From Chryseolinea sp. (GTDB taxonomy: Bacteria > Bacteroidota > Bacteroidia > Cytophagales > Cyclobacteriaceae), in contig JAICGJ010000004.1 of NCBI GenBank assembly GCA_025923195.1, forward strand, positions 12,610 to 76,609: a DNA stretch of 64,000 nucleotides, written 5' to 3'. Shown here one piece after another: positions 11,777-49,746 of this stretch. The stretch's first letter is position 1. Every line of letters starts with the position of its first letter. Below the pieces are notes generated by a model. That model did not search any database. It worked only from the letters and a program-made list of their open reading frames with translations, and was not told the origin of the DNA. A program made the position numbers and the translations under genes.

Positions 11777-13522
11777 CTATATCTTCTTCCTGTTTATCCA
11801 AACTACTGAGACAGCAACTATGATTAGTGCAACAGCCAGAATCAACAGATATGTAAAGCCTGTCGAAACATTCGCCTCGTCGACTGCAAGGGCACCTGTC
11901 TTTTTATAAACGGGGATCATCCATTGCATAACATAAGCCTGCAAACAGGTGAGGATACAAATTACGAAAAGCATGATAAAGCTGTGTTTTACTGTAAACC
12001 GGAAAAGGTCCGATTCCTTTCCCACCAGGCCGACAGCGGCGGCACCAATTGCAATAGATTGCGGAGAAATCATTTTTCCTGTTACACCACCAGAGGCATT
12101 GGCGCTCACAGTGACAACCGGATCAACGCCTAGGGTATCCGCCGACGTAGCTTGAAGTTTACAAAATAGCGCATTCGATGATGTATCTGAGCCTGTAAGA
12201 AATACACCCAACCATCCCAGGATAGGGGAGAAGAAGGGGAAGAGCGCTCCCGTGCTGGCAAGCGCTACAGCCATCGTAATGGACATTCCGGAATTATTAG
12301 CTATAAAAGCAAACCCAACAACACAGGCGATCGTGATAACGGGGAATTTTAATTGCTTCAAGGTCGACCAGTAAATTTGGGCACCTCTGCGATAGGTTAG
12401 ACCCAGGAGGGGAATTGACATAATTGCGGCAAACAGCACTGCTGTGCCAGGTGCCGAGAGGTAATTGAATTCGAAAGGTTTTATTACCAGCGGGCTTCCA
12501 TCGGCTTTTTGTATCGCTCCATTCAAACCTGGGACATCGAACTTAATGATGCCGATGGAATTTAACGCATCCTTCACAGGCTGAAGGCCCCAGGCTACGA
12601 TGAACATTGTCATGATAATAAAAGGACACCAAGCCTTGAAGACCTTGCCGGCTGAGTAATGGAGTTTGGTATCAAGGGTCTGAGGCGGCTCCTCTTGAAA
12701 GCGCCATGTGGATTTGGGTTTCCAAAATTTAAGGAGCACGATCAGACATACTATCGACGCTATGCCAGCCAGTACGTCGGGGAGCATTGGTCCTAGATAG
12801 TTTGCGGCAAACCACTGGAAAAATGCGAATGATACGCCGGACACAATGAGCGCCGGTAATACTTCCAATGATTTTTTTAATCCCGACATTAATATTACCA
12901 AGTAGAACGGCACTACCACCGACAAGACAGGAAGTGTACGACCCACCATTTGGGATATTGCCATCTCAGGGATGTCGGAAATGCGCGAGGCCATTATTAT
13001 CGGTGTTCCCACTGAACCGAATGCAACGGGTGCGGTATTCGCGATCAGGCAGATACCTGCGGCGTAAAGCGGGTTAAATCCTAATCCAACAAGCAATGCC
13101 GCAGAAATGGCAACAGGCGCTCCAAATCCAGCAGCGCCTTCAAGAAAAGCACCAAAAGAAAATGCAATTAAAATGGCTTGAAGCCTGCGATCGGGAGTGA
13201 CCGAGGCCATAAAATTTTTAATGATATCAAATTGACCACTTTCTACCGTGATATTAAAGAGAAAAACAGCGCCAATAATAATCCAGCATATGGGAAAGAG
13301 TCCGTATAAGGCGCCATGAATCGCCGACGCGGCTGCAAGCTTCAGCGGCATTCCATAGACCGCCATGGCCAGCAGAATCGACAACAATATCGTAAGCAAG
13401 CTGGCAACATAACCCTTTACTTTTCTGATCAACAACCAGAAAATAAAAATTACGGGAATGGCGGCTACCAGAGCCGAAAGGACGATGTTGTTAAAAGGAT
13501 CAATGACTTGCGTCCAGCTCAT
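11777..13522 (-). CDS. L-lactate/glycolate permease (LctP/GlcA family)
   Basis: 581 aa polytopic membrane protein. The N-terminus MSWTQVIDPFNNIVLSALVAAIPVIF and overall layout are typical of LctP. Its start overlaps the stop of the upstream dehydrogenase by 4 nt. Confidence 0.85.
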   Translation of the reverse strand: MSWTQVIDPFNNIVLSALVAAIPVIFIFWLLIRKVKGYVASLLTILLSILLAMAVYGMPLKLAAASAIHGALYGLFPICWIIIGAVFLFNITVESGQFDIIKNFMASVTPDRRLQAILIAFSFGAFLEGAAGFGAPVAISAALLVGLGFNPLYAAGICLIANTAPVAFGSVGTPIIMASRISDIPEMAISQMVGRTLPVLSVVVPFYLVILMSGLKKSLEVLPALIVSGVSFAFFQWFAANYLGPMLPDVLAGIASIVCLIVLLKFWKPKSTWRFQEEPPQTLDTKLHYSAGKVFKAWCPFIIMTMFIVAWGLQPVKDALNSIGIIKFDVPGLNGAIQKADGSPLVIKPFEFNYLSAPGTAVLFAAIMSIPLLGLTYRRGAQIYWSTLKQLKFPVITIACVVGFAFIANNSGMSITMAVALASTGALFPFFSPILGWLGVFLTGSDTSSNALFCKLQATSADTLGVDPVVTVSANASGGVTGKMISPQSIAIGAAAVGLVGKESDLFRFTVKHSFIMLFVICILTCLQAYVMQWMIPVYKKTGALAVDEANVSTGFTYLLILAVALIIVAVSVVWINRKKI

Positions 13523-16413
13523 GATAAGGTTTTAGGCCTGACAACTTCCACCCAATGTTTAGGCTTGACGCCGGTAAAATGATGAATCTGATGGCGGCAG
13601 CTGAATCCATTGGCAACGAGGGTGGTACCCGCTTTCATGGCCTTAACCGCAGGGAATAGCACACTTTCGCCGATCTTACGGGATATTTCATAGTGCTCTT
13701 TCTCGTATCCAAAGGACCCCGCCATGCCGCAACAGCCCGATGGAATTTCAGAAATGGTTTGACCGCTTTTGCTTAACAGTCGCTTCAAACCATCAGTGCC
13801 ATACAGGGATTTCTGGTGACAATGTCCGTGAATAAGAAGATCACCTGCGATGGATTCGAATGTGCCGTTGAGCCTTCCACTGCCAACTTCGTTTTCAAGG
13901 AACTTATCGATCATTATGACTTTGTCGCGCAACTGGCGTCCATATGCCTCGTCATCGATCAGATCTGGAAGGTCGTCGTTTAGTGCGGATGCACAACTGG
14001 GTTCACATACGACGATCGTTAAGCCCTCGTCAATGTATTTCCTTAGCGCGTCGACTGTTTTCGTTCCATCTGCCTTAGCGTCTCTCAAAAAGCCGTGGGA
14101 AATCCGCGGCCGTTGACAGCAACCGGCATTTGCCAGGATCACCTCATAGCCACACGCGTTCAGCAACTCTAGGGCTCCAATGCCTATGTTTGGCTCATGG
14201 AAATTCAGATATGTATCTGCAAAAAGAACAACCTTCTTCTCTGGATTTTTATAAGTATTGTTGCCTGACTTTGCAAACCATTTGTAAAATGGTTCGTTGG
14301 CATATTCGGGCAATGTTCTGCGGTGATCAAATCCAGCGATCTTTTCCAATGTTGATCTAAATAAGGCTGTGCCCTGGATCGAATTGATCATCGAGGAAAG
14401 GCGACCTGAAAAATGGGAGGCAGCCCTAGAAGAGTCACGGATCATCCGGTCGCGCATCGTCACACCGTGCTCATCATAGTACATCTGCAAGACATCACTT
14501 TTCATCTTCGCCATATCCACATTGCTTGGGCATTCCGCCTTACAGGCTTTGCATGAAAGGCACAAATCCAATACCTCGTGAAGTCGCTTGCTTGTTAATC
14601 CCGCTTTGTCAAGCTGACCCGACATCGCAAGGCGCAGCGCATTTGCGCGTCCTCTGGTTGAGTGTTCCTCATCGCGCGTTGCCTTGAAACTTGGACACAT
14701 GGTGCCTCCTAACATTTTTCTGCATTCACCAACGCCCGTGCACATGTGTACCGACTCTCCAAAACTATTCTCGGTTCGATAGTGAAACGTTGTCTTCACA
14801 TCCTGATCTCGGTAATGGGTTCCATATCGGAGGTTATGTTCAATGGTTTGAGAATCCACAATCTTGCCTGGATTCATCAGGTTCTCCGGATCAAATAATT
14901 TCTTTACGTCCCTGAAGGCCTGATACAGGGTTCGACCAAAAAATCGTTCGTTATAGGCACTTCTCACCAGCCCATCACCGTGTTCTCCGCTCCATGATCC
15001 TCCATATTTTACGACAAGGTCAAAGGTCTCATCGGTAATATTTTTCAGATTGATGATATCCTGTTCCTGGCGCAAGTCGAGAAGCGGTTGAACATGGATC
15101 ACGCCGACGCTGGCATGGGCATACATCGAGACTTCTGTGTTATGCTTTGCGCAGATCTTTAGAACCTGGTCAATATATTCAGGCAGGACATTCGTCGGGA
15201 TAGCGGAATCTTCGATAAAACTTAACGCTTTCTTTTCGCCTTTGATACCCATCATAAGACCGAGTCCTTTTTTACGAAGGGTCCACACATCGTCGTATTC
15301 CTTACCGGCAGGGAAGTAAGGATATGCATAGCCCAGGTTAAGTTGCTGCAACGCCGTCGCCATTTGCTGTGGCCTCTGCAGAACGGATTCCAGCGTGTCC
15401 CCATAAAACTCGACGATAAGGATGGCAGCAGGATCACCATCAATGAAATGACATAGCCGCTGGGTTGTCAGATTCTCAGCGCTTAACCTTAAAACGATAC
15501 GATCGAGAATCTCTATTGCCGAAGGTTTGAATGGTAACATGGGTTCGACGGCCCGTATGGCTTCAAGCAATTCGGCAAAATGCACCACCGCAACCGACTT
15601 GAATCTTGGAAGCGGCTCAAGATTTATCTTTACTTCCAGTGTTACGGCCAATGTCCCTTCACTGCCCGTAATAAGCTTTGAGAGGTTCCAACGGTCGGTG
15701 TACACAAATTCATCGAGATTATAACCACCGACTCTCCGCATTACTTTTGGAAACCGCTGTTTTATTTCCTCTCGATTTTGGTTAATCGTACTCTGGAAAT
15801 TCCGGTAAATTTCACCTTCCCGGTTTTGCTGCCGCACCTTTTCTTCTAATTCCTCAGGCGAAAGTTCCTTCAGATCGAGGCGTGTTCCATCGGCCAGCAG
15901 TACCTTTGCTTCGAGGATATGATCTACAGTCTTGCCGTATAAGATACTTTTGGTGCCTGACGAATTATTACCAACCATACCACCAACATTCGCCCTGCTT
16001 GAGGTGGCTGGATCAGGGGCAAAATGCAGATTGTATTTTCCCATAACCTCATTCAGTTCATCGCGGACGAGCCCTGGCTGAACTTTTACCCACCTCTCAT
16101 TTTCATTGAATTCCAGGATCTTGTTCATGTACTTGGAAAAATCAATGACTATTGCTTCCCCTACGGTCTGACCAGCCAGGCTCGTGCCGCCACCTCGCGG
16201 CAAAATTTTTATTTTATGGGTTCGCGCGATTTCAACTGCCTTGATAACATCCGACTCGTCGCGAGGAAGGACGACTGCTAGAGGTCGGATCTGGTAAAAG
16301 CTGGCATCTGTCGAATACATGCCCAGCGAATAATCATCTAAAAGCACATCACCTTTGATATTCTTGAGTTCGTCAACAAAAGGGAGTGAGCCTACGCTTT
16401 CTTGTTTAAGCAT
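13519..16413 (-). CDS. Fused FAD-linked oxidase / 4Fe-4S / CCG-domain 2-hydroxyacid dehydrogenase (GlcD+GlcF-like, YdiJ-like)
   Basis: FAD_binding_4 motif PRGGGTSLAGQ. Ferredoxin-type Cys clusters CTGVGECRK..CP and CLSCKACKAECP. Two CCG motifs (GCCQRP, GCCGMAGSFG). Confidence 0.85.
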   Translation of the reverse strand: MLKQESVGSLPFVDELKNIKGDVLLDDYSLGMYSTDASFYQIRPLAVVLPRDESDVIKAVEIARTHKIKILPRGGGTSLAGQTVGEAIVIDFSKYMNKILEFNENERWVKVQPGLVRDELNEVMGKYNLHFAPDPATSSRANVGGMVGNNSSGTKSILYGKTVDHILEAKVLLADGTRLDLKELSPEELEEKVRQQNREGEIYRNFQSTINQNREEIKQRFPKVMRRVGGYNLDEFVYTDRWNLSKLITGSEGTLAVTLEVKINLEPLPRFKSVAVVHFAELLEAIRAVEPMLPFKPSAIEILDRIVLRLSAENLTTQRLCHFIDGDPAAILIVEFYGDTLESVLQRPQQMATALQQLNLGYAYPYFPAGKEYDDVWTLRKKGLGLMMGIKGEKKALSFIEDSAIPTNVLPEYIDQVLKICAKHNTEVSMYAHASVGVIHVQPLLDLRQEQDIINLKNITDETFDLVVKYGGSWSGEHGDGLVRSAYNERFFGRTLYQAFRDVKKLFDPENLMNPGKIVDSQTIEHNLRYGTHYRDQDVKTTFHYRTENSFGESVHMCTGVGECRKMLGGTMCPSFKATRDEEHSTRGRANALRLAMSGQLDKAGLTSKRLHEVLDLCLSCKACKAECPSNVDMAKMKSDVLQMYYDEHGVTMRDRMIRDSSRAASHFSGRLSSMINSIQGTALFRSTLEKIAGFDHRRTLPEYANEPFYKWFAKSGNNTYKNPEKKVVLFADTYLNFHEPNIGIGALELLNACGYEVILANAGCCQRPRISHGFLRDAKADGTKTVDALRKYIDEGLTIVVCEPSCASALNDDLPDLIDDEAYGRQLRDKVIMIDKFLENEVGSGRLNGTFESIAGDLLIHGHCHQKSLYGTDGLKRLLSKSGQTISEIPSGCCGMAGSFGYEKEHYEISRKIGESVLFPAVKAMKAGTTLVANGFSCRHQIHHFTGVKPKHWVEVVRPKTLS

Positions 16414-21250: not shown

Positions 21251-22602
21251 TAAGCAGAAGAAATTTTATTAAACAATCCTTTGCAGTGTCCGCAGGCTTC
21301 TCAGGATTAAATCTATTTTTGTCTATGCCCTCCGTTGCTGGTGCAGTTACTATGAATCCCGTGGTAGAGAAATGGCTGGAGCTTCCTGAAGGGTTTAAGG
21401 CAAAAATAATATCCAAATGGGGAGATAAGATGTCGGATGGGTTTTTTGTGCCGGGTCATCCCGACGGAATGGCGGCTTTTGACGTTAAGGGAAAGGTTGT
21501 GCTCGTGAGGAATCATGAAAACAGTCCAGGACCAACAAGGTATGGACCCTTTGGCGAAGATCTTTCCTTGTTACCGAAGGCCGACAAGAGCAAATTTTTC
21601 GATTATGGTTTCGGCACGACTCCTGGATTAGGAGGGACCAGCACAGTAATTTTTAATGAAGAAAAGCAACGCGTTGTATCGCAGTTTTTAACTCTGATAG
21701 GAACTAACCGTAATTGCGCCGGAGGCCTGACACCGTGGAACAGTTGGATTAGCTGTGAGGAGGACACAACTTTGAAAAGCAGCCAATCCGAAAAAAATCA
21801 TGGGTATAACTTTGAAATCCCCGCTTCGGGTAAAAAATTGGTAGACCCGTTGCCTTTAAAGGAAATGGGCCGATTTAATCATGAGGCGATTTGCATTGAT
21901 CCCTCAACAGGAATTGTCTACTCAACTGAGGATCGCAGCGATAGCCTCGTTTACCGATTTTTGCCGAAGGCTACAGGTAAGCTGCACCAGGGCGGCACTT
22001 TGCAGGCACTTTCTATCAAGGGCGAAAAAGGGTTTGACTCGCGAAATTGGGAACAGTCCACTTGCAAAGTCGGAGATGCTCTCGAAGTTGAATGGATTAC
22101 ATTGTCCGATGTTGATACCGATGAAGATGACTTGAGGCTGAGAGGTCATTCACAAGGCGCCGCGTTATTTGCACGAGGCGAAGGAATGTGGTTTGGAAAT
22201 AGGGAAGTATATTTTGCGTGTACGAATGGTGGTACTACTAAGTCTGGCCAGATCTTCAAGTATATTCCGGCTGCCAGTGAAGGGAAAACAGATGAAAACG
22301 ATGCTCCTGGAAAATTGATCCTATTTGCAGAGCCTAACAATACTAATATCCTCAAGTATTGTGATAACCTCACCGTTGCGCCATGGGGTGATGTCATACT
22401 GGTGGAGGATTCTAAGGACGCTTACATTCGTGGGATCACGCCAGCCGGAAAAATTTATAACATTGGTCGAAATATTGGATCTGATTCTGAGCTTACCGGA
22501 CCATGTTTTTCGCCTTCCGGAAAAACGCTTTTCCTAAACATTCAGATGGAAGGACTGACACTTGCGATAACCGGACCCTGGGAACGTTTGAGGCAAGCCT
22601 GA
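21247..22602 (+). CDS. DUF839 / PhoX-like secreted phosphatase with Tat signal
   Basis: Tat-type N-terminus MISRRNFIKQSFAVSAGFSGL. NCAGGLTPWNSWISCEE and RFNHEA motifs are typical of the DUF839/PhoX family. Confidence 0.75.
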   Translation: MISRRNFIKQSFAVSAGFSGLNLFLSMPSVAGAVTMNPVVEKWLELPEGFKAKIISKWGDKMSDGFFVPGHPDGMAAFDVKGKVVLVRNHENSPGPTRYGPFGEDLSLLPKADKSKFFDYGFGTTPGLGGTSTVIFNEEKQRVVSQFLTLIGTNRNCAGGLTPWNSWISCEEDTTLKSSQSEKNHGYNFEIPASGKKLVDPLPLKEMGRFNHEAICIDPSTGIVYSTEDRSDSLVYRFLPKATGKLHQGGTLQALSIKGEKGFDSRNWEQSTCKVGDALEVEWITLSDVDTDEDDLRLRGHSQGAALFARGEGMWFGNREVYFACTNGGTTKSGQIFKYIPAASEGKTDENDAPGKLILFAEPNNTNILKYCDNLTVAPWGDVILVEDSKDAYIRGITPAGKIYNIGRNIGSDSELTGPCFSPSGKTLFLNIQMEGLTLAITGPWERLRQA

Positions 22603-22787
22603 TCTGAGTAAGCAGTGTACAGCTTTCAGCTTACAGCAGTGTGCATTTCTTAACCTGTGAAGAACTGTCGTCAATGGGAGGTAAGAAAATTTCCGGCGAA
22701 TGTTGGTGAGGGGTTTCATGTTCAGCTTGCACAAACCCCAACTTAGAACTTCAACACTTAGAACTCCAACACCTCAACACCTGGTTA

Positions 22788-34339: not shown

Positions 34340-35782
34340 CTAGTCAAGTGCAAGGAGCTCATGGATAAGTACCATCATGCCGTTGGGGTGCACACCGATC
34401 CAGATAAGAAGAATTGTAAGTATCGCCATTGTCACGCCGCTCACGACATATACTGATGGATTCAGCTCATTTGAGGCTGGCCGTTCCACCTCATTTTTTT
34501 CCATCATTGTTGCAATGATCTTAATATAATAGTATAAGCCAATAGCACTGTTGACCGCCAGCATCACCACCAGAAGCCACAGATGTTCCCTCACACCTGC
34601 AGCGACCAGGTAAAATTTGCCAATAAAGCCGGCAGTCAATGGAATCCCAGCCAAAGACAGAAGCATGGATGTGAACATTGTTGCAGTCCAAGGTCTTGTC
34701 CAAAACAGGCCTCTATAGTCGTCCAACAATTCCGCGTCTCTATCCCTGTCTGAAAGGGTTGCAAGTATACCAAAAGCACCCGTTGAAGTAATGAAATAGG
34801 CAACCAGATAAAAACTCACAGCTTCGATCCCCAACGTTCCTCCTGCCAGGAATGCAACGAGCAGATATCCAAGATGGGCAATAGAGGAGTATGCCAGCAC
34901 GCGCTTAACGTTACCCTGTCTCAACGCCAGAAAATTTCCGATGAACATCGACGCGATTGCGATAATAGTGAAAATCAAGATGAGACCATGATACTGATAG
35001 CCGTCGATTGCCGTGAAAAAACGAACCAACAATGCCATCATACCTCCCTTCGAAACGGTTGCAATAAAAGCCGTAACGGGTGCGGGTGCTCCTTCATAAA
35101 CATCGGCAGCCCACATATGGAAAGGCACAACGCCTAATTTAAATCCTATTCCAACGGTCATGAGTCCGAAACCAGCAAATACAATGACTGGCATGGCTTC
35201 TAAAGACGAGAGATGGCTGGCAATTTTAGAAAATTCCATGGTGCCCACCGCTGTATATACCAGTGCCATTCCAAATAACAGAAAGGCTGACGAGAATGCA
35301 GCTAAAATCAGGTACTTGATCCCAGCTTCATCCGAACGTGCACGTTTGCGTAGGTAGGCAATCATGGAGTATAGCGATACGCTGAGAATTTCGAGACCAA
35401 GAAAAAGCGACACAAAATGCTTGCTGATCACAAGAACAATCGCCCCGAGTGTGGCAAGTATCAGCAGGATGTAATATTCCTCCTTCCTTTCTTCGCGTTG
35501 TTCAAAGTAGGCGTAAGAGATCATCGTGACAGCGAGTGCTGTTAATAATATAAGGCCGGTATTGAAGGTGCCAAATCCATCGAATATAAACAGCGGTTCA
35601 ATAACCCAAGTAGCCGTCGCCTTATACCAGACGAGAAAGATAAAGTCGATAGCTAGCGACACCGTTGTAATGACATAAATTACCTTATGGTCTCGCTTTA
35701 CTGCGATGGAAAACAAAATGAGAATAGCTGCACTTGTCAGTATAAATAGCGGAACTACGCTTAAAAAATCAGTTTTACTCAT
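34340..35782 (-). CDS. nuoN: NADH-quinone oxidoreductase subunit N
   Basis: 480 aa antiporter-like polytopic protein, last in the nuo gene order. 8-nt overlap with nuoM. Confidence 0.9.
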   Translation of the reverse strand: MSKTDFLSVVPLFILTSAAILILFSIAVKRDHKVIYVITTVSLAIDFIFLVWYKATATWVIEPLFIFDGFGTFNTGLILLTALAVTMISYAYFEQREERKEEYYILLILATLGAIVLVISKHFVSLFLGLEILSVSLYSMIAYLRKRARSDEAGIKYLILAAFSSAFLLFGMALVYTAVGTMEFSKIASHLSSLEAMPVIVFAGFGLMTVGIGFKLGVVPFHMWAADVYEGAPAPVTAFIATVSKGGMMALLVRFFTAIDGYQYHGLILIFTIIAIASMFIGNFLALRQGNVKRVLAYSSIAHLGYLLVAFLAGGTLGIEAVSFYLVAYFITSTGAFGILATLSDRDRDAELLDDYRGLFWTRPWTATMFTSMLLSLAGIPLTAGFIGKFYLVAAGVREHLWLLVVMLAVNSAIGLYYYIKIIATMMEKNEVERPASNELNPSVYVVSGVTMAILTILLIWIGVHPNGMMVLIHELLALD

Positions 35783-37307: not shown

Positions 37308-39184
37308 AGCAGTAGCCCCAAGGTTAAGATCAGGATTGCACCTATTACCATGCTCATAATATACCAGCGGAGAATTCCTCCCTGTGAACGGGCAAATATT
37401 CTGTGCAGAAGTTCCGTTGTATAAACGATTAGCGAATAAAATTTGTCAACTATGTCGTTCTTGTTAACTGTCGCAAGAAAAACATATGGCTTCACAAGTA
37501 CGCTGTCATACAGATTATCAAATCCCCAACCCATAAACCAAAAACGATGAAGACCGGCCAAAGAGCTTTTCAGCTGAGATGCCTGTTCAGGCTTTCGGAC
37601 ATAATAATGATAAGCGATGAAAATACCCACTAGTGACAGCACCATCGTGATGCCCTGGATGGTCCATTCCATCCCTGTTGTAGCACTCGGATCAACTGCA
37701 ACGGCTGGTAATACGGGCTTCAGAAAGTCTGAGAACAATTCAAGATGCCCAAGTGTGTGAGGAAGCTCAATAAATCCTCCTACCAGGGAGAGTACTGCCA
37801 GGATAACCAACGGTATAGTTATTCGCGCACCTGTGTGATGTCCTACGGCGGTTTTGGCTTCCCCAAAGAAAGTGACGAAGACCATTCTGAAGGTGTATAT
37901 TGACGTGACAAACGCACCAGTCAATCCAGCAAGGAAAAACCATATATTTCCTTTTTCTCCGGCAAATGAAAGCCAGAGGATACTGTCCTTACTGTAGAAG
38001 CCGGCTGTGATGAAGGGTAGGGCGGCTAATGACGCAGACCCAATCAGGAATGTCCAATAGATCACGGGAAGTTTATTTCTTAGTCCTCCCATTTTAAACA
38101 TGTCGTGCTCATGGTGTAAGACCATAATTACCGCGCCCGCGCCAAGGAATAATAATGCTTTGAAAAATGCGTGGATCATAAAATGAAAAATAGCGGCCGA
38201 CCAGGCGCCAACTCCTAGGGCAAGGAACATATATCCTATCTGGCTAATGGTGGAATACGCCAGCACACGCTTCAAGTCAAACTGTGTAAGGGCGCTAAAC
38301 CCTGCGATCAGCAACGTGAGGGCGCCGATTATTCCAACACATAGCTGTGCCGTAGGCGAGAGCTCAAAGATGACGTGCATACGTGCGATCAGATAAACAC
38401 CGGCGGTAACCATTGTGGCAGCATGGATCAATGCGCTGACTGGTGACGGACCAGCCATAGCATCGGGCAGCCATGTCTGTAAAGGAAGTTGAGCAGATTT
38501 TCCAACAGCACCACCTAAAAGCAGCAGGGCAACAACCATAGCAGTTTGCGAACCGACAGACCAAAGCTGAGGGGCTTGTTCTAAAATGTCATTGATGATT
38601 AATGTGCCGAAGATATCAAAGAGCATGAATAATCCGATTGCCATGGCCGTATCGCCAACACGTGTTACAATAAACGCCTTTCGTGCTGCGTCACCATTTT
38701 TCTTCTCTTCATACCAAAAACCGATCAGCAGATAGCTGCATAGACCCACACCCTCCCATCCGAGATACATCAACACCAGATTATCAGCCAGTACTAAAAT
38801 CAACATGGATGCAACAAAGAGGTTCAGATAAGCAAAAAATCTGGCGAAGCCCTCGTCTTCCGCCATGAACTCGGTTGAATACACGTGTATCAAGAATCCT
38901 ACGAAGGTGATGACAAAAATAAAAACCAGCGAAAGTGAATCCAGGTGAAACCCAAAAGCAGGGCTCAATCCCGCAACATCAATCCATTGCCATAGCACCT
39001 GTCTGAACGGCCCGGCCGCGGGAGCATAATTCAAACCTATCAGGATAACCAGCAGCGCTGACAACCCAACACTGCCCGCGCCAACAAAAGACGCTGCTAT
39101 ACGTGAGAGTTTTGTCCCAAGGATTATCAGAATGATTGCACCCAGGAAGGGGAGAGCAGGCACTATCCAGAGTAGTTCTGTCAT
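37304..39184 (-). CDS. nuoL: NADH-quinone oxidoreductase subunit L
   Basis: 626 aa (..LPLQTWLPDAMAGPSPVSALIHAATMVTAGVY..), with the position expected for nuoL. Confidence 0.92.
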   Translation of the reverse strand: MTELLWIVPALPFLGAIILIILGTKLSRIAASFVGAGSVGLSALLVILIGLNYAPAAGPFRQVLWQWIDVAGLSPAFGFHLDSLSLVFIFVITFVGFLIHVYSTEFMAEDEGFARFFAYLNLFVASMLILVLADNLVLMYLGWEGVGLCSYLLIGFWYEEKKNGDAARKAFIVTRVGDTAMAIGLFMLFDIFGTLIINDILEQAPQLWSVGSQTAMVVALLLLGGAVGKSAQLPLQTWLPDAMAGPSPVSALIHAATMVTAGVYLIARMHVIFELSPTAQLCVGIIGALTLLIAGFSALTQFDLKRVLAYSTISQIGYMFLALGVGAWSAAIFHFMIHAFFKALLFLGAGAVIMVLHHEHDMFKMGGLRNKLPVIYWTFLIGSASLAALPFITAGFYSKDSILWLSFAGEKGNIWFFLAGLTGAFVTSIYTFRMVFVTFFGEAKTAVGHHTGARITIPLVILAVLSLVGGFIELPHTLGHLELFSDFLKPVLPAVAVDPSATTGMEWTIQGITMVLSLVGIFIAYHYYVRKPEQASQLKSSLAGLHRFWFMGWGFDNLYDSVLVKPYVFLATVNKNDIVDKFYSLIVYTTELLHRIFARSQGGILRWYIMSMVIGAILILTLGLLL

Positions 39185-39392
39185 GGTTGTTTCTGTTATC
39201 CGTTATCCGTTATCCGTTATCCGTTAATAGTTATCCGTTATCCGTTACTAGTCAATAGTTAATAGTTAATAGTTAATAGTTTTTAGTTTTTATTGGTGGC
39301 TCATCAATTTAGCAATCAGCTGCAGACCGTTGAGCAGCACCACACCCTCGCTCACCCCCACTTTTATCGGATAACGGATAACTGATAACGGA
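39185..39392. repeat. nuoK-nuoL spacer element: 14 phase-locked heptamers, a core, a C-rich box and an inverted heptamer arm
   Basis: 39196-39293 reads TTATCCG x4, TTAATAG, TTATCCG x2, TTACTAG, TCAATAG, TTAATAG x3, TTTTTAG, TTTTTAT with no phase break. CACCACACCCTCGCTCACCCCCAC lies at 39339-39362. GGATAAC GGATAAC TGATAAC GGAT at 39369-39393 is the reverse complement of the left arm. Confidence 0.9.
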
Positions 39393-39701
39393 TCATCCCT
39401 TCATCTTATTCGCCGCATCACTATCCAGTGTTTTGAGCTGGTGATAGATCTGCAGGATCAACGCAAGCCCTACAGAGACTTCTGCTGCGGCCATGGTTAG
39501 TATGAAGATGAACATTACCTGTCCGTCTGCCTGTGACCACTTTGCGCCCGCTACCACAAAAGCAAGGCCCGCTGCGTTCAGCATGATCTCCACGGAAATC
39601 AGCATAAAAATAATATTGCGCCTGATCAGTACGCTGATAAGACCCAGCGTAAAAAGAACGCCTGCCAATATTAGTCCCGCTTCCGTAGGTACCTGGTCCA
39701 T
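39393..39701 (-). CDS. nuoK: NADH-quinone oxidoreductase subunit K
   Basis: 102 aa, 3 TM (..[30 protein letters not shown]..). Confidence 0.92.
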
Positions 39702-39924
39702 GGGTTATCCGTTATCCGTTATCCGTTAATAGTTGATAGTTAATAGTTAATAGTTATTAGTTATCCGTAAATAGTTAAGCTTTATACCTAATACATAATA
39801 CCTTATTCCCTTATTCCTTATTCCTTACTCCATTATAACTTCAGCAGCGCCTGTTCATCTGCGCCACACTCACCCCACACTCACCCCCACACCCACGATT
39901 AACGATTAACGATTAACTATTAAA
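39702..39924. repeat. nuoJ-nuoK spacer element: 11 phase-locked heptamers, CCTTATT x4, a core, a C-rich box and GATTAAC x3
   Basis: 39705-39781 reads TTATCCG x3, TTAATAG, TTGATAG, TTAATAG x2, TTATTAG, TTATCCG, TAAATAG, TTAAGCT. CCTTATT-type units lie at 39801-39829. CCACACTCACCCCACACTCACCCCCACACCCAC lies at 39864-39896. GATTAAC x3 lies at 39897-39917. Confidence 0.9.
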
Positions 39925-40452
39925 CTAACTAGCTTCTTCCTCCAAAAACCTGTGAACAATTTTCTTCTTTTGTCGTCCCAAGTGATATGCGCCAACGATC
40001 CCTGCCATTAGTAATATTCCACTCAGTTCCACACCTATAACGTAAGGTCCGTAGAGTGACATCCCTACAGCTTTGGAGTCAACAATCTGCGCGTCCGATG
40101 GGGCAACTTGTGCTCCCACAATAATGTAAATCAGCTCTGCCAGCAGCACTAGCGACAGCAATGCTGGTCCGGTGATGATCCCGCGACTTAACCATTGCCG
40201 CTCCTGCGCGACTGCCTCCTCTTTGAGGTTCAGCATCATAATAACAAAAATGATCAGCACGACAATAGCACCAGCATAGATGATCACCTCGAGCGCCGCG
40301 ACAAAAGGTGCTCCTAAAAGATAAAAAACGACCGCTACTGCCAAGAATGAAACTACTAAATATAGCAGGGCATGAATCAGGTTATGATTCGTTATTACCA
40401 TCACTGTTGCAATGACCGCAATGGCCGATGTTATGTAGAAGGCGAGTTGCAT
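39925..40452 (-). CDS. nuoJ: NADH-quinone oxidoreductase subunit J
   Basis: 175 aa, 5 TM (..VVFYLLGAPFVAALEVIIYAGAIVVLIIFVIMML..). Confidence 0.9.
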   Translation of the reverse strand: MQLAFYITSAIAVIATVMVITNHNLIHALLYLVVSFLAVAVVFYLLGAPFVAALEVIIYAGAIVVLIIFVIMMLNLKEEAVAQERQWLSRGIITGPALLSLVLLAELIYIIVGAQVAPSDAQIVDSKAVGMSLYGPYVIGVELSGILLMAGIVGAYHLGRQKKKIVHRFLEEEAS

Positions 40453-40623
40453 TATCTGTTATCTGTTATCTGTTATCTGTTATCCGTTAATAGTTTATAG
40501 TTTATAGTTTATAGTTTTTAGTTTTTAGTTTTTAGTTTTTAGTTTTTAGTTTCTAGTTTTCCCCACTCACACACCCACGTATAACTGATAACGTATAACT
40601 GATAACTGATAACGGATAACTCC
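40453..40623. repeat. nuoI-nuoJ spacer element: 16 phase-locked heptamers, a C-rich box and 6 inverted heptamers
   Basis: 40452-40563 reads TTATCTG x4, TTATCCG, TTAATAG, TTTATAG x3, TTTTTAG x5, TTTCTAG, TTTTCCC in one 7-nt phase. CCCCACTCACACACCCAC lies at 40561-40578. GTATAAC TGATAAC GTATAAC TGATAAC TGATAAC GGATAAC lies at 40579-40620. Confidence 0.92.
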
Positions 40624-41148
40624 CTAAGGCAAGAGACTGCGAACATCCACCGGAGGATCTTCATTCTGTGCTTCTCCTTTATCTTTTCCTCCGATCGCCA
40701 ATCCAGCAACTTTATAATAGTTGTAACCTGGATATTTCCCCTGTCCGTCAATAAGCAGATCCTTTTTTTCGTATACCAGGTTCTGACGATCATATTCGCC
40801 CATCTCAAAATCAGGTATCAGTTGAATGGCATACGTCGGACATGCTTCCTCGCAATAGCCGCAGAAAATACACCGTGAAAAATTAATTCGAAAGAACTCA
40901 GGATACCTCCTGCCATGTTCGTCTTCAGTTGCCTGCAGCGAAATACAATCTACCGGACAGGCTGCAGCACAAAGGTAGCATCCAACACATCGTTCACCCA
41001 TATCCGGATCCCGCGTCAGGACAATTCTTCCCCGCCAACGCGTCGTGAGCTTATTCTTTTGTTCGGGATACTGGACGGTTTCACGCTTATGAAACATGTG
41101 CATAAACGTGATCCACATACTGCGAATGATGCTAAACATATTTTCCAA
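40624..41148 (-). CDS. nuoI: NADH-quinone oxidoreductase subunit I (2x[4Fe-4S] ferredoxin)
   Basis: [12 protein letters not shown] and [12 protein letters not shown] motifs. Confidence 0.93.
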
Positions 41149-41195
41149 TTTTTATAGTCCCAACTTCCGATCTTTCAATCTTCAAATTCAACCTT

Positions 41196-44848: not shown

Positions 44849-44930
44849 GGGTCAGTAATCAGTAGTCAGTTAAGTGCTTAGTAGTTAATAGTTATTAGTT
44901 ATTAGTTAACACGTATGTCCGTTCTCGCGA
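44849..44930. repeat. nuoF-nuoG spacer: about 8 heptamers (TCAGTAA/ATTAGTT type) plus a 9-bp hairpin straddling the nuoF stop codon
   Basis: 44852-44907 reads TCAGTAA TCAGTAG TCAGTTA AGTGCTT AGTAGTT AATAGTT ATTAGTT ATTAGTT. TCCGTTCTC (44918-26) pairs with GAGAACGGA (44937-45). A GGATAAC unit at 44943-49 lies inside the nuoF 3' codons. Confidence 0.8.
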
Positions 44931-46223
44931 TTACCGGAGAACGGATAACGTCTCTCTTTCATACGGACATACTTTCTCATGTATATGCTTTTCGAAATCC
45001 TCGCGAAAATATTTAAGTGCACTTTGCAAAGGTTCCATCGCGCCAGGTGCAAACGCACAAAATGTATTTCCCGGTCCTAAGTATTTGGTATGAAAAGCAA
45101 GCAACTGCAAGTCTTCCATTCTGCCCTTACCCAGGTCGATTGACTCCAGTATCTTTTCAACCCAAGGCAAACCCTCGCGGCAAGGGGTACAATATCCGCA
45201 AGACTCCTGTGCAAAAAAATGCTCCAGGTTTTTTACAAACCCAACCGGGCAAGTTTTATCATCCAAAATTACCAGCGTACCGGTTCCAAGACGACTGCCG
45301 GCAGCTGCTACCGAAGTGTAATCCAGTTTGACATCCAGGTGCTCTTCAACCAAAAAGTCCGTAGAGGCTCCGCCAGGCAATGCCCCTCTGAATCTCAGGC
45401 CATCCTGCATTCCACCCGCGTATTCTTCGATGAGTTCACGCATGGTTATACCCATTGGCAACTCCCAGGCTCCCGGTTTTTTTACCCTGCCACTGACACC
45501 ATATATTTTGGTGCCCGCGTCAGAAGTGCGGCTTAAATCTTTGAACCAGTCCGGGCCATTCATCAAAATATGTGGAAGGCAGCATAAAGTTTCAACATTG
45601 TTCACAATGGTGGGCCTTCCGAACAGGCCACTGATCTGAGGGAATGGAGGTTTAGCGCGCGGGGTTGCACGCTTACCTTCCAGTGAATTTAGAAGAGCTG
45701 TTTCTTCTCCACACATGTATCTTCCCGCGCCGGTGTGAAGATGCATCTCCAGATTAAATCCTGACCCGAGAATATTTTGCCCCAGATATCCTGCAGCTTT
45801 AGCCTCCTCAAGTGCCTTTGTTAGGGCATGTGCTGCTGTCTTATAAGCCCATCGCAAATAGATGTATGATATATTTGCCCCGATCGCATAGGAAGCAAGT
45901 ATCATCCCCTCAATCAGTTGATGTGGAGTACATTCCAGCAATATCCTGTCCTTGAATGTTCCAGGTTCCATTTCGTCGGCGTTGGCGATCAGGTATTTGG
46001 GTGTGGTGGAATCCGCGGGAACAAAACTCCATTTCAAACCTGTGTTAAATCCTGCACCGCCGCGCCCACGCAGGTTTGACTCTTTGACCAAGTCAATTAC
46101 CGCCTTTGGGGTCATCGCCTTGATCACTTTTCGCAATGACTGGTATCCCCCAGCCATCTCATATTCTTTGAGGGTAAGCGGTTGCCTGTCTGCGCGTATA
46201 TGTTGGGTTAGCGGTTTTTCCAT
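44931..46223 (-). CDS. nuoF: NADH-quinone oxidoreductase subunit F (FMN/NADH-binding)
   Basis: GRGGAGFNTGLKW FMN motif and 4Fe-4S motif ESCGYCTPCREG. Confidence 0.95.
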   Translation of the reverse strand: MEKPLTQHIRADRQPLTLKEYEMAGGYQSLRKVIKAMTPKAVIDLVKESNLRGRGGAGFNTGLKWSFVPADSTTPKYLIANADEMEPGTFKDRILLECTPHQLIEGMILASYAIGANISYIYLRWAYKTAAHALTKALEEAKAAGYLGQNILGSGFNLEMHLHTGAGRYMCGEETALLNSLEGKRATPRAKPPFPQISGLFGRPTIVNNVETLCCLPHILMNGPDWFKDLSRTSDAGTKIYGVSGRVKKPGAWELPMGITMRELIEEYAGGMQDGLRFRGALPGGASTDFLVEEHLDVKLDYTSVAAAGSRLGTGTLVILDDKTCPVGFVKNLEHFFAQESCGYCTPCREGLPWVEKILESIDLGKGRMEDLQLLAFHTKYLGPGNTFCAFAPGAMEPLQSALKYFREDFEKHIHEKVCPYERETLSVLR

Positions 46224-46314: not shown

Positions 46315-46779
46315 TCAATCATACTTTGCCAAAATATAGTCCAGCTGGTCCGTTGTGAGATTTCTGTAGAGATCGTCATCGATCATCAGCGCCGGAGCGC
46401 AGTCGCAGGTCCCTAAGCAGCAATTAGGAAGTAAGGTATACCGCCCATCAGTCGTTGTTTCGCCATACTTTATTCCCAGCTTAGTGGAGAGGTCTTGCAA
46501 AATATTCTCGTACCCCATCACCCAACAACTAATGCTGTCACAAAGCAGGATGATGTGCCGTCCCACCGGTTTCCTGAAGATCAGGTTGTAAAATGTTGCA
46601 ACCGAGTCCAATTCCTCGGGTGACATATCCATATAGGCGGCGATATCGCGCAAGCTTTCGTCTGATATCCAGCGGCGATGCTCCTGAACAATTTTCAGAG
46701 CATCTATTCCAGCCGCCTTTCTCACAGGTACCAGACTTATGGCATGATCAATTTCATTTTTTTCTTCGGTCGTCAACAT
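46315..46779 (-). CDS. nuoE: NADH-quinone oxidoreductase subunit E (2Fe-2S)
   Basis: CDSISCWVMG ... CCLGTCDCAPALMIDD thioredoxin-like ferredoxin motifs. Confidence 0.93.
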   Translation of the reverse strand: MLTTEEKNEIDHAISLVPVRKAAGIDALKIVQEHRRWISDESLRDIAAYMDMSPEELDSVATFYNLIFRKPVGRHIILLCDSISCWVMGYENILQDLSTKLGIKYGETTTDGRYTLLPNCCLGTCDCAPALMIDDDLYRNLTTDQLDYILAKYD

Positions 46780-46801: not shown

Positions 46802-48583
46802 TTATCTGTCAATATCCGCCAGTACATAATCCATTGCACCGAGAATGCTCAACAAATCTGCGACGGTATAACCACGGCTTATATAGGGTAACATTTGCAT
46901 ATGTGCAAAGGATGGGGTACGAATCCGAACTCGATATGGGGACGTATTACCATCACTGACGGCAAAATATCCGTTTGCGCCCTTAGGTGCCTCGATACAG
47001 CTCAAAGCTTCTCCTCCTGGGATAACAGGTCCCCAGCTAACACCTAGAAAATGCGTAATGAGTGTCTCTATATCCTGCATTGTATTTTTTTTAATTGGTG
47101 GTGTTGTGAGCGGGTGATCCGCTTTATACGGACCCGGCGGCATATTTTTCCAGCATTGTTCGATGATCCGAAGACTCTGACGCATTTCTTCAACTCGTAC
47201 AGCAGCGCGATCAAAACAGTCGCCGTTATTTCCCAGTGGCACGTCGAAGTCGAACATTTCATAACCTGAATACGGACGTTTTTTTCGGAAGTCCCAATCA
47301 AAACCGCAGGCTCGCAGGTTGGCACCCGTCGCCCCCCATTCAATGGCTTCCTCGGTTGTAAAAATTCCTATGCCTTCCGTCCGAGCCTTAAACAAACTGT
47401 TCTTCATTACCAGGTTGTCGTATTCGCGAAGGCGGGCCGGAAAATAATCAATGAATTTCTTAACGAGCGAGTCCCAGCCGACGGGTAGGTCCTGTGCAGT
47501 ACCACCGATTCGAAACCAGTTCGGGTGCATTCGTCCGCCACAGACGGCCTCAACAATATCGAATACCCTTTCCCGGTCTGTGAACATGTAGAAGACAGGG
47601 GAGAGCTGGCCGACGTCCTGTGCAAAAGTACCGTACCAAACCAAGTGACTGGCAATTCTGAAAAACTCGCACATCATGACACGAATTACTTTTGCCCTTT
47701 CAGGGACCGTGATGCCTGCAAGATTTTCGACTGCTAATAGATAGGCGAGGTTGTTGTTTACTCCACCCAAATAATCGATCCTGTCGGTGTAAGGAATATA
47801 GGTGTGCCATGATTGACGTTCAGCCATTTTTTCAGCACCGCGATGGTGAAAACCGATGTCAGGCACGGCCTGGACAATATCTTCGCCGTCCAACTGTAAG
47901 ACTATGCGCAAGACGCCATGCGTTCCCGGGTGTTGCGGTCCGATATTCAGGAACATGAAATCAGATTCATCGCTATGAAGTTCCATGCCCCACTCCTCAG
48001 GACGGAATTGTAGTGCTGATTGTTCCAGGTCCTGCTTTTCCTGCCATAAGCGGAAGGGACCCATCTCTGTCGCCCTCGCGGGGTGTTCTTTTCTCAATGG
48101 ATGACCTTCCCACGTAAGGGGCATCAGGATTCTCGTCAGGTGTGGATGTCCATCAAAGTGAATACCGAACATGTCGTAAACTTCGCGTTCATACCAATTG
48201 GCATTAGCCCAAAGCGCCGAGATGCTGGGTACGGCAGGATAATCTTCGCGCAGGGCAATCTTGATGCGTATGAACGTATTGCGGTCAAAGGAAAAAAGAT
48301 GGTATACGATGCTAAAATGTGAAGTGGGGTAGTCACCATCCTTCTTTCGGCTTCGTTCGTCAATGGCCGTCAGATCGAATAAGAAAGGGAAGGGATTGGG
48401 GATTTCAGATTTAAGAAACCTTAATACTTCAACGATGCGATCCAACGGTACCCAAACGGTGAGTAGATCATCCTTTGTTACTTGCTTGGTGAATGTTGCT
48501 TCACCAAACCTTAAATTCAAACTTTCTGTTGGATCAATGTTCTCCATAAGTTTATGGTGGATGTCCAATGGTTCACAGTCCAT
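46802..48583 (-). CDS. nuoC: Fused NADH-quinone oxidoreductase subunit C/D
   Basis: A single 593-aa ORF. The N-terminal part is NuoC-like (..[19 protein letters not shown]..) and the C-terminal part is NuoD-like (..[14 protein letters not shown].. ending ..[12 protein letters not shown]). Confidence 0.93.
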
Positions 48584-48676
48584 AGTCTATAGTCCATAGC
48601 CGCTGTTCTTAAGTCTTTGTGCCTTAGGCCCTCTTCATTGCCATGGACCATCGACCATGGACCATGGACTTTCCTC
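48581..48676. repeat. nuoB-nuoCD spacer: CATAGTC-type heptamers facing CCATGGA-type heptamers
   Basis: CATAGTC TATAGTC CATAGCC lies at 48581-48601 and starts on the nuoCD start codon. CCATGGA CCATCGA CCATGGA CCATGGA lies at 48641-48668. The arms are imperfect reverse complements (AGTCCATAG vs AGTCCATGG). Confidence 0.8.
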
Positions 48677-49315: not shown

Positions 49316-49746
49316 GACTTGATTTTTTTCTTTGTTAGTTTTTTATAAGCCTTTAGGATTTTCTTCCCGTCAGGACCAAAGTCAAGCGCGCCATTCCGCC
49401 ATTCATAAATAAGTACGACAAACAAAAGGATAACAAATATTCCCACACCAACATAGCCGAACCAACCCAGTTCCCTGAATGCAATTGCCCATGAAAAGAT
49501 GAATATGGTCTCTACGTCAAAAATGACGAAGAGCATTGCGATGAGATAGAACTGTGAAGAAAAACGGAGACGGGCGCCGCCGGTGCTAAGAATACCACCT
49601 TCATAAGGTTCGTTGGTGGCGTGTTCTTTGTGACGCTGACCTAATATAAACGAAAGACCCAGCATTAATATTACCAGGCCAATCACAATGGCCCCGTAAA
49701 CCAATAGAGGCCATAAGGGAACAGTATTTTCACTCGAAACTTCCAA
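49312..49746 (-). CDS. nuoA: NADH-quinone oxidoreductase subunit A
   Basis: ..[22 protein letters not shown].. is the NuoA signature. Only a TTG start at 49746 keeps TM1, because the next in-frame ATG is 28 codons in. Confidence 0.88.

Follow-up and report, generated by a model that had tools for sequence, protein, structure and literature searches.

Why should the complex I operon of a soil bacterium carry long runs of a 7-nt repeat between its genes, and does the way in which these runs face one another matter to the transcript? The question is raised by the nuo operon of Chryseolinea sp., a member of the Cytophagales, within the 64-kb stretch of DNA analysed here (the window). The operon occupies the minus strand from nuoA at 49746 to nuoN at 34340 and comprises 13 genes, the full nuoA-N set in an E. 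coli-like order with nuoC and nuoD fused into one 593-aa open reading frame (ORF; 46802-48583). At least five of its intercistronic spacers are colonised by fast-evolving 7-nt tandem arrays. The operon thereby contains a series: four spacers with opposed arrays predicted to form hairpins, one with direct repeats only and two without long arrays. We tentatively favour the view that the arrays are a tolerated, self-expanding heptamer repeat, and that their opposed arrangement may, as a side effect that tunes expression, yield a hairpin that occludes or couples downstream initiation. All structural statements below are thermodynamic predictions.

Tandem Repeats Finder (TRF) placed period-7 arrays of 3.6-10 copies, matching at 78-100%, in the nuoF-nuoG, nuoI-nuoJ, nuoJ-nuoK, nuoK-nuoL and nuoB-nuoCD spacers (F-G, I-J, J-K, K-L and B-CD hereafter), and an independent period-7 scan agreed. 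In that scan of the whole window, all five long arrays (at least about 31 nt) fell within nuo spacers; TRF also returned a few short period-7 matches of 2-3 copies outside them. For comparison between strains we used a 22.6-kb contig of assembly GCA_025931155.1 (locus L001), which encodes an identical NuoJ protein and matches the window at 99.1% identity over 6.5 kb. The I-J spacer (171 nt; 40453-40623) and its borders are laid out as follows.

40624-40626, minus strand: nuoI stop codon TAG, followed by GGA (from the sequence)
40579-40620, minus strand: 5' arm of six units, GTTATCC, GTTATCA or GTTATAC, starting 3 nt past the nuoI stop (sequence, TRF, fold)
40561-40578, minus strand: G-rich box GTGGGTGTGTGAGTGGGG, directly 3' of the 5' arm (sequence)
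40491-40560, minus strand: (AAACTAN)x10 array, G-free and unpaired, forming the hairpin loop (TRF, 10.0 copies at 95% match; fold)
40453-40487, minus strand: 3' arm, one ACGGATA (40481-40487) and then (ACAGATA)x4 (40453-40480), abutting the nuoJ ATG (sequence, TRF, fold)
40450-40452, minus strand: nuoJ ATG (sequence)

This layout had been described in an initial annotation of the window, whose coordinates and unit counts proved exact by sequence, TRF and period-7 scan. When folded as RNA, positions 40440-40635 reach a minimum free energy (MFE) of -42.6 kcal/mol, against -27.3 +/- 3.4 kcal/mol in 200 dinucleotide shuffles, none of which (0/200) folded as well as the native sequence (z = -4.48). 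The annotation had predicted a duplex of 35-40 bp that engulfs the nuoJ start codon. Some 36 bp do form between the inverted arms, but as six helices of 8, 7, 6, 5, 6 and 4 bp separated by mismatches of 1-2 nt; the stem is not one continuous duplex, and its longest unbroken helix measures 8 bp. The A, U and G of the nuoJ start codon are all paired, inside helix 2, as had been proposed, and nuoJ codons 2-4 pair with GGGAG just past the nuoI stop. The antisense strand folds about equally well (z = -3.1).

The K-L spacer is organised in the same sense, with an arm at the stop codon, a G-rich box and an arm before the next gene.

39360-39393, minus strand: 5' arm of K-L, CCGTTATCAGTTATCCGTTATCCGATAAAAGT, abutting the nuoK stop codon at 39393-39395 (inverted repeat, fold)
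39338-39361, minus strand: G-rich box of K-L, GTGGGGGTGAGCGAGGGTGTGGTG (sequence)
39195-39252, minus strand: 3' arm of K-L, (ACGGATA)n with one AACTATT unit, ending about 11 nt 5' of the nuoL ATG at 39184 (TRF, inverted repeat, fold)

Read on the plus strand, the 5' arm appears as GGATAAC GGATAAC TGATAAC at 39369-39389 and faces TTATCCG x4 from 39196; this geometry, with the partner lying against the nuoK stop, is again as first described. The two arms, 34 nt long and 91% complementary, form helices of 10 and 15 bp with one mismatch between them (MFE -61.9 kcal/mol; z = -4.77 against shuffles). A further hairpin of opposed arrays, the fourth in the operon and absent from the initial annotation, lies in the B-CD spacer (48577-48669, minus strand) and is built from a different heptamer.

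48641-48669, minus strand: 5' arm of B-CD, (GTCCATG)x4, following the nuoB stop (TRF, fold)
48577-48599, minus strand: 3' arm of B-CD, three units of ATGGACT or ATAGACT, containing the predicted nuoCD ATG at 48581-48583 (TRF, fold)

These arms stand 39 nt apart and form helices of 14 and 12 bp, again with one mismatch between them (z = -5.11). Arm units are thus matched within each spacer though they differ between spacers, GTCCATG with ATGGACT in B-CD and GTTATCN with NGATAAC elsewhere. As far as folding models can tell, the structural inference originally drawn is sound for I-J and K-L, and it extends to B-CD.

The J-K spacer is the third site at which comparison with shuffled controls had been proposed.

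39895-39924, minus strand: 5' arm of J-K, TTTAATA and then (GTTAATC)x3, beginning at the nuoJ stop codon at 39925-39927 (inverted repeat of 29 nt, 86% complementary)
39864-39894, minus strand: G-rich box of J-K, periodic at 12 nt and differing from L001 by a 12-nt indel (TRF, strain alignment)
39704-39778, minus strand: forward arrays of J-K, (AACTATT)n and then (AACGGAT)x3, ending 2 nt 5' of the nuoK ATG at 39701 (TRF, sequence)

I-J and K-L beat their shuffles, whereas the J-K spacer, folded over its full length, does not beat its own (z = +1.17); the outer arm-to-arm stem of J-K is kept in both the MFE and the centroid structure. The interior of J-K (39801-39836) holds an array resembling (GGAATAAG)x4, a unit that also makes both hairpin arms, GGAATAGGGAATA... 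and ...TATTCCCTATTCC, in the I-J spacer of the closest relative (L002). Common units are used across I-J, J-K and K-L (39185-40623), and arms of different spacers could consequently pair and loop out whole cistrons; one possible case is the arm past the nuoI stop with the arm before the nuoL start.

Repeats that lack this opposed arrangement are found in the remaining array-bearing spacer.

44852-44909, minus strand: forward-only arrays of F-G, made of TAACTAA, TAACTAT, TAACTGA, CTACTGA and TTACTGA and stopping 3 nt short of the nuoG ATG (TRF, sequence)

No inverted partner of these arrays occurs in the F-G spacer. A separate 8-bp stem, CCGTTCTC...GAGAACGG, lies in the same region (44849-44933) with the nuoF TAA stop in its loop. 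The nuoH-nuoI spacer (41140-41195) contains degenerate GAAGATT/TTGAAAG-type repeats, and a longer array of that kind fills the nuoH-nuoI spacer of a related locus (L004). To judge from the repeats themselves, nearly every spacer of the nuo operon seems to have been seeded with short tandem repeats.

The G-rich box that accompanies three of the hairpin spacers is free of C and has the rough consensus GTGGGTGTG..GTGAG..GGGG. It stands directly past the 5' arm in I-J and J-K, and is set off from that arm in K-L by a 7-nt GATAAAA linker. Similar boxes recur in L004, L016, L093, L114 and L119. As a general companion of GTTATCC arrays, the box could be dismissed: it was present at 5 of 129 arrays, and the mean G content downstream was 0.23-0.25. 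In I-J, the box has fewer G-runs than a canonical quadruplex needs. Rfam gave no match at gathering score anywhere in the window and, within the operon, a single match at chance level (E = 0.09). No promoter-like or terminator-like site was found in the spacers between 39185 and 40623. An intrinsic terminator or attenuator was rejected for the same interval, in which the 3' arms lead into A-rich sequence.

What would such hairpins do to the downstream gene? Opening the region from -18 to +12 around the start codon is predicted to cost 12.2 kcal/mol in I-J, 10.8 in J-K, 8.4 in K-L and 24.3 in B-CD, compared with 5.6-6.8 kcal/mol in three nuo spacers without opposed arrays (5.6 in F-G). Bacteroidetes initiate translation without Shine-Dalgarno pairing, and initiation is tuned instead by leader structure and upstream adenines (PMC6847099). 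On the reading that we favour, the arrays on the polycistronic mRNA would fold into a long, mismatched hairpin that slips between registers and loops out about 100 nt, so that stop and start codons would meet at its base and the downstream initiation region would be sequestered. Because initiation in this host makes no use of Shine-Dalgarno pairing and needs an unstructured, A-rich leader, independent initiation would be expected to fall at nuoJ, nuoK, nuoL and nuoCD alike. Downstream expression would then require the stem to be opened or cut, whether by upstream ribosomes, a helicase, a single-strand-binding protein or a nuclease, and the upstream mRNA segment would gain a 3' hairpin. In duplex DNA, the 40-140 nt between arms make cruciform extrusion unlikely, which favours a single-stranded context. 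The hairpin probably forms on the mRNA in vivo; that it measurably lowers or couples downstream translation is possible, and we put it forward with less assurance.

The same design is found in other bacteria. We classed nuo spacers of 60-300 nt in related loci as expanded, and 14 of 51 such spacers fold with z < -3. Their opposed arrays consist of 7-9-mers with unrelated units: GTTATCC/GGATAAC in nuo spacers of L004 and L059, GAAGTGTT/AACACTTC in a nuo spacer of L014, GGTCCAT/ATGGACC and GGTAATC/GATTACC in the cultured Chryseosolibacter histidini (L020), GTTGTTC/GAACAAC in L029, GGTCTATCT/AGATAGACC in a Nitrospira (L062) and TTTCAGG/CCTGAAA in a Victivallales (L079). The unit pair of B-CD also builds the nuoH-nuoI hairpin of C. 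histidini, whose strain PWU4 has a second hairpin of opposed arrays in nuoL-nuoM; in another cultured species, Adhaeribacter rhizoryzae DK36 (L046), such a hairpin lies in nuoH-nuoI. In 18 strong hairpins, the distance from stop codon to stem is 0-7 nt (median about 3-4 nt) and that from stem to start codon -1 to 48 nt; all 18 combine a G+U-rich 5' arm with an A+C-rich 3' arm.

With (GGATAAC)x3 as its target, an unbiased scan of metagenomes returned at least 120 loci, whose hosts span widely different GC content; the counts of array position and pairing come from the first 80 of them (82 arrays). None of the 82 arrays lies inside a long ORF. GGATAAC reads within 30 nt 5' of an ATG-initiated ORF 13 times versus 2 in reverse, and GTTATCC lies within 60 nt past a stop codon 20 times versus 10 in reverse; the orientation of arrays relative to genes is non-random. 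The positional rule is that the A/C-rich, G-poor NGATAAC (TAACNGA in another register) runs into the start codon and its complement GTTATCN follows the stop, so that the two come to face each other where an operon spacer is short. An inverted partner within 350 nt accompanies about a quarter of the arrays, and about three-quarters are solitary. Among the paired arrays, the non-nuo locus L114 is a near-copy of the window architecture, and L156 has arms of roughly 200 nt each. In four soil metagenomes, the depth over three array segments (39156-39267, 39716-39771 and 40444-40555) is 50-100x that of the flanking nuo genes, and dozens of soil contigs exit the arrays into unrelated sequence, which together place such arrays at very many loci of the community.

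Between strains the arrays change quickly. The I-J 5' arm has 8 units in L001 and 6 in the window, a two-unit, 14-nt indel; the AAACTAN array of the same spacer differs by a 7-nt indel, and the L001 3' arm reads ACGGATA x4, then ACAGATA and ACAAATA, where the window has its ACAGATA block. Aligned with L001, I-J has 21 gap columns and a substitution density of 6.4 per 100 nt, against 0.2 per 100 nt in coding sequence, and soil populations carry 7-nt indels at 39895 and 40607. Despite its different unit counts, L001 retains the I-J hairpin in its MFE structure (z = -4.8); its centroid structure is empty, indicating that many registers compete. In 80 related loci, nuo spacers are short in most (6-30 nt), with a median of 11 nt for I-J, -4 nt for J-K and 29 nt for K-L, and the long inserts are therefore not needed for complex I expression. 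The inserts are, from these alignments, dispensable and hypervariable and not a conserved or fixed switch, which argues against a dedicated regulatory device.

How far, then, does an occluding or coupling hairpin account for the locus? In stop-start coupling hairpins, sequence past the upstream stop pairs with the downstream initiation region and the start stays hidden until the structure is opened; in the classical form the stem has a single register and is opened by the terminating ribosome. The nuo spacers resemble these hairpins in that post-stop sequence pairs with the downstream initiation region. Unlike classical stems, the nuo arms can re-pair in another register, and the calculated occlusion is the same with a ribosome on the stop. 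This and a number of further observations weigh against our preferred reading. When 13 nt from the nuoI stop were masked as a ribosome footprint, the cost of opening nuoJ was 12.1 kcal/mol versus 12.2 unmasked, because the repeats re-pair in the other register, and a model of the terminating ribosome with its footprint forced unpaired gave no relief at I-J, J-K or B-CD. Simple coupling by the terminating ribosome, one of the roles originally suggested, is thus not supported at equilibrium at the three junctions modelled. Soil metatranscriptome contigs pass from nuoK and nuoJ a few nucleotides into the arms and end in the repeats, at a depth of only 2-6 over the two genes, and a search for RNA-seq of the cultured carrier C. 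histidini found none.

Nor do the hairpins themselves point to the mRNA strand. Across the 18 strong hairpins, G-U pairs number 64 in sense and 82 in antisense, and sense is more stable than antisense in only 12 of 18. The G+U-rich 5' arm was considered as a signal of transcript orientation and discarded: it holds on the reverse complement too, and so defines a class of palindrome and not a strand. The G-to-A change in the I-J 3' arm between L001 and the window is uncompensated in the 5' arm. The start codon lies inside the stem at I-J and B-CD of the window but mostly not in relatives, in which the 3' arm mostly ends 10-48 nt before it, and an AUG within the stem is consequently not the conserved feature. 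The I-J spacer of L003 is an unstructured direct array (z = +3.2); since direct arrays without structure are tolerated at equal positions there and in F-G, tolerance needs no hairpin. Finally, complex I requires fixed subunit ratios, a requirement that fits poorly with four strongly occluded cistrons.

Several of these observations would be expected if the hairpins were a neutral by-product, an account that we consider somewhat unlikely. Arrays would turn over by DNA-level replication slippage and by intrastrand template switching that copies one arm, and ribosomes, helicases or single-strand-binding proteins would keep the RNA open, with no effect on nuo. The hypervariability of the arrays between 99% identical strains and in soil populations, their absence from most relatives, their presence at very many unrelated loci (soil depth 50-100x the flanks), the lack of strand asymmetry in G-U pairs, the uncompensated mismatches between strains and the tolerance of non-palindromic arrays within the operon all agree with it. 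A purely DNA-level process, however, does not lead one to expect the 13-to-2 orientation bias before starts, and it leaves unaccounted for the A+C-rich arm that lies next to the start codon in 18 of 18 hairpins. The predicted stabilities (-40 to -60 kcal/mol) and the 8-24 kcal/mol needed to free the initiation region also speak against neutrality in a host without Shine-Dalgarno initiation (PMC6847099). An RNA-processing or stability element, which we regard as unlikely, would make different use of the same duplex: RNase III would cut it, or it would block 3'-to-5' exonucleases. The 13-gene transcript would be segmented, with differing half-lives of the segments, and cleavage would free the downstream initiation region and activate translation, a function akin to that of REP/BIME elements (repetitive extragenic palindromic units and bacterial interspersed mosaic elements) or of the RNase III sites of T7 and adhE. 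RNase III requires about two helical turns, that is, about 20 bp of near-regular double-stranded RNA, and the helices of K-L (10+15 bp) and B-CD (14+12 bp), broken by single mismatches, are long enough, whereas I-J has a longest unbroken helix of only 8 bp and breaks every 6-8 bp. The stems begin 0-7 nt past the upstream stop, as 3' stabiliser hairpins do, and have no U-tract past them, hence are not terminators; stabilisation of transcripts has also been proposed for hairpins of short tandemly repeated repetitive (STRR) sequences (PMC2670836). Set against this, no RNA ends could be mapped in metatranscriptome contigs at a depth of 2-6, the elements are not conserved and relatives do without them, and a stem that slips in register offers no defined cleavage site.

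The heptamers might instead be multivalent sites for a sequence-specific protein, acting on RNA (S1-, Csp- or CsrA-like, a suggestion already made for TAACTGA repeats) or on DNA (a nucleoid or regulatory protein), with the hairpin incidental. Most forward units have a common TAAC core (TAACGGA, TAACAGA, TAACTGA, TAACTAT, TAACTAA), which is found too in the TAACTGA repeats described from Beggiatoaceae, cyanobacteria and Bacteroidetes (PMC4679880), and they read forward right up to start codons; in Nostoc, deletion of heptamer repeats altered reporter output (bioRxiv 10.1101/2022.06.06.494920). A single specific binder cannot, however, explain the equal geometry of unrelated units such as GTCCATG, GAAGTGTT, GTTGTTC and GGTCTATCT, and no candidate protein was identified, which leaves this account quite improbable. 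Opposed, unit-matched arrays, which turn up with unrelated units of 7-9 nt in nuo spacers from Cytophagales, Nitrospira and Victivallales, could also be a general, repeatedly evolved device bridging long intercistronic inserts. In its several parts, stop and start would stand side by side and post-termination ribosomes may cross the hairpin base in a shunt-like re-initiation, copy number may be a heritable, rapidly mutable dial for subunit ratios, and the lineage-specific G-rich box may be an auxiliary protein-binding or structural signal; as a whole we hold it to be very improbable. A mobile element resembling REPs or miniature inverted-repeat transposable elements (MITEs), with heptamer arrays as its terminal inverted repeats, is barely credible. 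Inserts are indeed present or absent between close relatives at one gene junction, and the succession of arm, G-rich box and arm is common to three spacers and to the non-nuo locus L114. Yet the centres of the four spacers are unique, with no match among themselves or in about 200 fetched loci, target-site duplication is not evident, arm lengths shift in single-unit steps, and three-quarters of the metagenome arrays are solitary. MITE membership was rejected on the same comparison of spacer cores, which match nothing in the window or in the roughly 200 loci.

To which known class of repeat do the arrays belong? Very probably to the poorly understood intergenic heptamer repeats of STRR or TAACTGA type. 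A REP/BIME-like element had been named as the comparator in the initial annotation, mistakenly, as it turns out. REP units, which BIMEs combine into mosaics, are conserved sequences of about 35 nt that each form an imperfect palindrome; their RNA stem-loops can protect upstream mRNA. Like the nuo arrays they are repetitive, extragenic and often placed between co-transcribed genes. Unlike them, each nuo arm is a tandem heptamer array, structureless and without self-complementarity on its own, that makes a stem only with its partner; the spacer cores are unique with no conserved or common core, and no REP-associated tyrosine transposase is in evidence within the 64 kb of genome covered. REP/BIME membership was rejected on the make-up of the arms and the unique cores.

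In TAACTGA repeats, arrays are intergenic, read forward, lie a few nucleotides from start codons and have one-base variants mixed in (MacGregor 2015, PMC4679880). Strains differ in them by 7-nt indels, and close relatives lack them; the carriers are Beggiatoaceae, cyanobacteria and five Bacteroidetes, and the arrays have been proposed to act in translation (PMC4679880). The nuo arrays agree with this class feature by feature. Their 7-nt units repeat head to tail in 3.6-10 copies by TRF, where the class calls for at least 2-3, and the period-7 scan agrees; the long arrays of the window, like those of the metagenomes, are confined to non-coding DNA; forward arrays end 0-11 nt before the ATGs of nuoG, nuoJ, nuoK and nuoL; and one-base variants are mixed in. 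Exact TAACTGA occurs in 5 copies over both strands of the window, all in nuo spacers, and of the degenerate forms, mostly the variants TAACGGA and TAACAGA, nuo spacers hold 7 of 11 plus-strand TAACNGA and 16 of 29 TCNGTTA. TAACTAT and TAACTAA units are present as well; the B-CD unit GTCCATG is unrelated to TAACTGA. Strains differ in steps of one unit (7- and 14-nt indels relative to L001, 7-nt indels in soil), and close relatives have short, repeat-free spacers. The differences are that the nuo arrays stand in opposed pairs inside an operon with long predicted hairpins, whereas the BOGUAY genome has 169 direct sets versus one indirect and no secondary structure was predicted (PMC4679880); that the dominant nuo unit is TAACGGA/GGATAAC; and that the host, a soil Cytophagales, is not among the Bacteroidetes listed there.

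The opposed arrangement itself has a precedent in cyanobacteria, where STRR hairpins lie between hupS and hupL and transcript stabilisation or translation coupling was proposed (PMC2670836). The two cases have in common 7-bp tandem repeats in a hairpin-capable intercistronic spacer of a multi-subunit redox-enzyme operon, and the identical pair of hypotheses, transcript stability or translational coupling, attaches to both. Here, too, opposed heptamer arrays fold within one spacer in silico (z = -4.5, -4.8 and -5.1). The nuo case differs in phylum, units and operon, in having four such spacers in one operon, in its loops of about 100 nt that contain further arrays and the G-rich box, and in a host without Shine-Dalgarno initiation, for which a different consequence is expected. 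Hairpins of this form in operon spacers are thus already known from cyanobacteria, and it is the host lineage and the operon that are new. A third set of heptamers, GGGNATC in Xanthomonas and Nostoc, places its G-rich strand past stop codons and the complement before ORFs (Rehm et al. 2015, PMC4692102). Those repeats, like the nuo arrays, are enriched between co-oriented ORFs and vary in copy number. They have G-tracts and form G-quadruplexes, unlike the AT-rich nuo arms, which lack G-tracts; only the separate G-rich box is quadruplex-like, with too few G-runs in I-J.

Single copies of array units also occur before other start codons. One, ...GATGATAAC, stands right before the ATG of a 964-aa ORF (13519-16413), and another, ACAGATAATGG, lies 20 nt 5' of nuoE (46315-46779). 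From these echoes the sequence suggests that GATAAC-like leaders serve as seeds for array expansion. An unrelated repeat-rich intergenic stretch is found on the plus strand at 22618-22782, 3' of an ORF ending at 22602, and contains TACAGCT x3, the 15-mer ACTTAGAACTCCAAC x2 and CAACACCT x2. By NuoJ, the nearest species representatives (70-86% identity) belong to the Cytophagales, in the vicinity of Chryseolinea, Ohtaekwangia and Chryseosolibacter, and an origin in Thiomargarita or Beggiatoa, considered at first because of the TAACTGA-like units, was rejected on this result; more distant NuoJ relatives in the genome scan include Gammaproteobacteria, Nitrospira and Acidobacteriota. Soil metagenomes contain the window sequence.

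Several bacterial phyla are rich in heptamer tandem repeats, which have been known for more than 30 years. The nuo operon described here is an unusually clean natural test set for them, in which a single transcript carries hairpin, direct-repeat and array-poor spacers and encodes fixed-ratio subunits, in a phylum that uses leader structure in place of Shine-Dalgarno sequences. In practical terms, the arrays break short-read assemblies, which is why contigs end there, and raise coverage locally. If the hairpins do nothing, the operon would show how large a structure load a polycistronic mRNA without Shine-Dalgarno sequences tolerates. If they tune or couple translation, slippage in copy number would give the bacterium a fast, reversible shift of subunit ratios.

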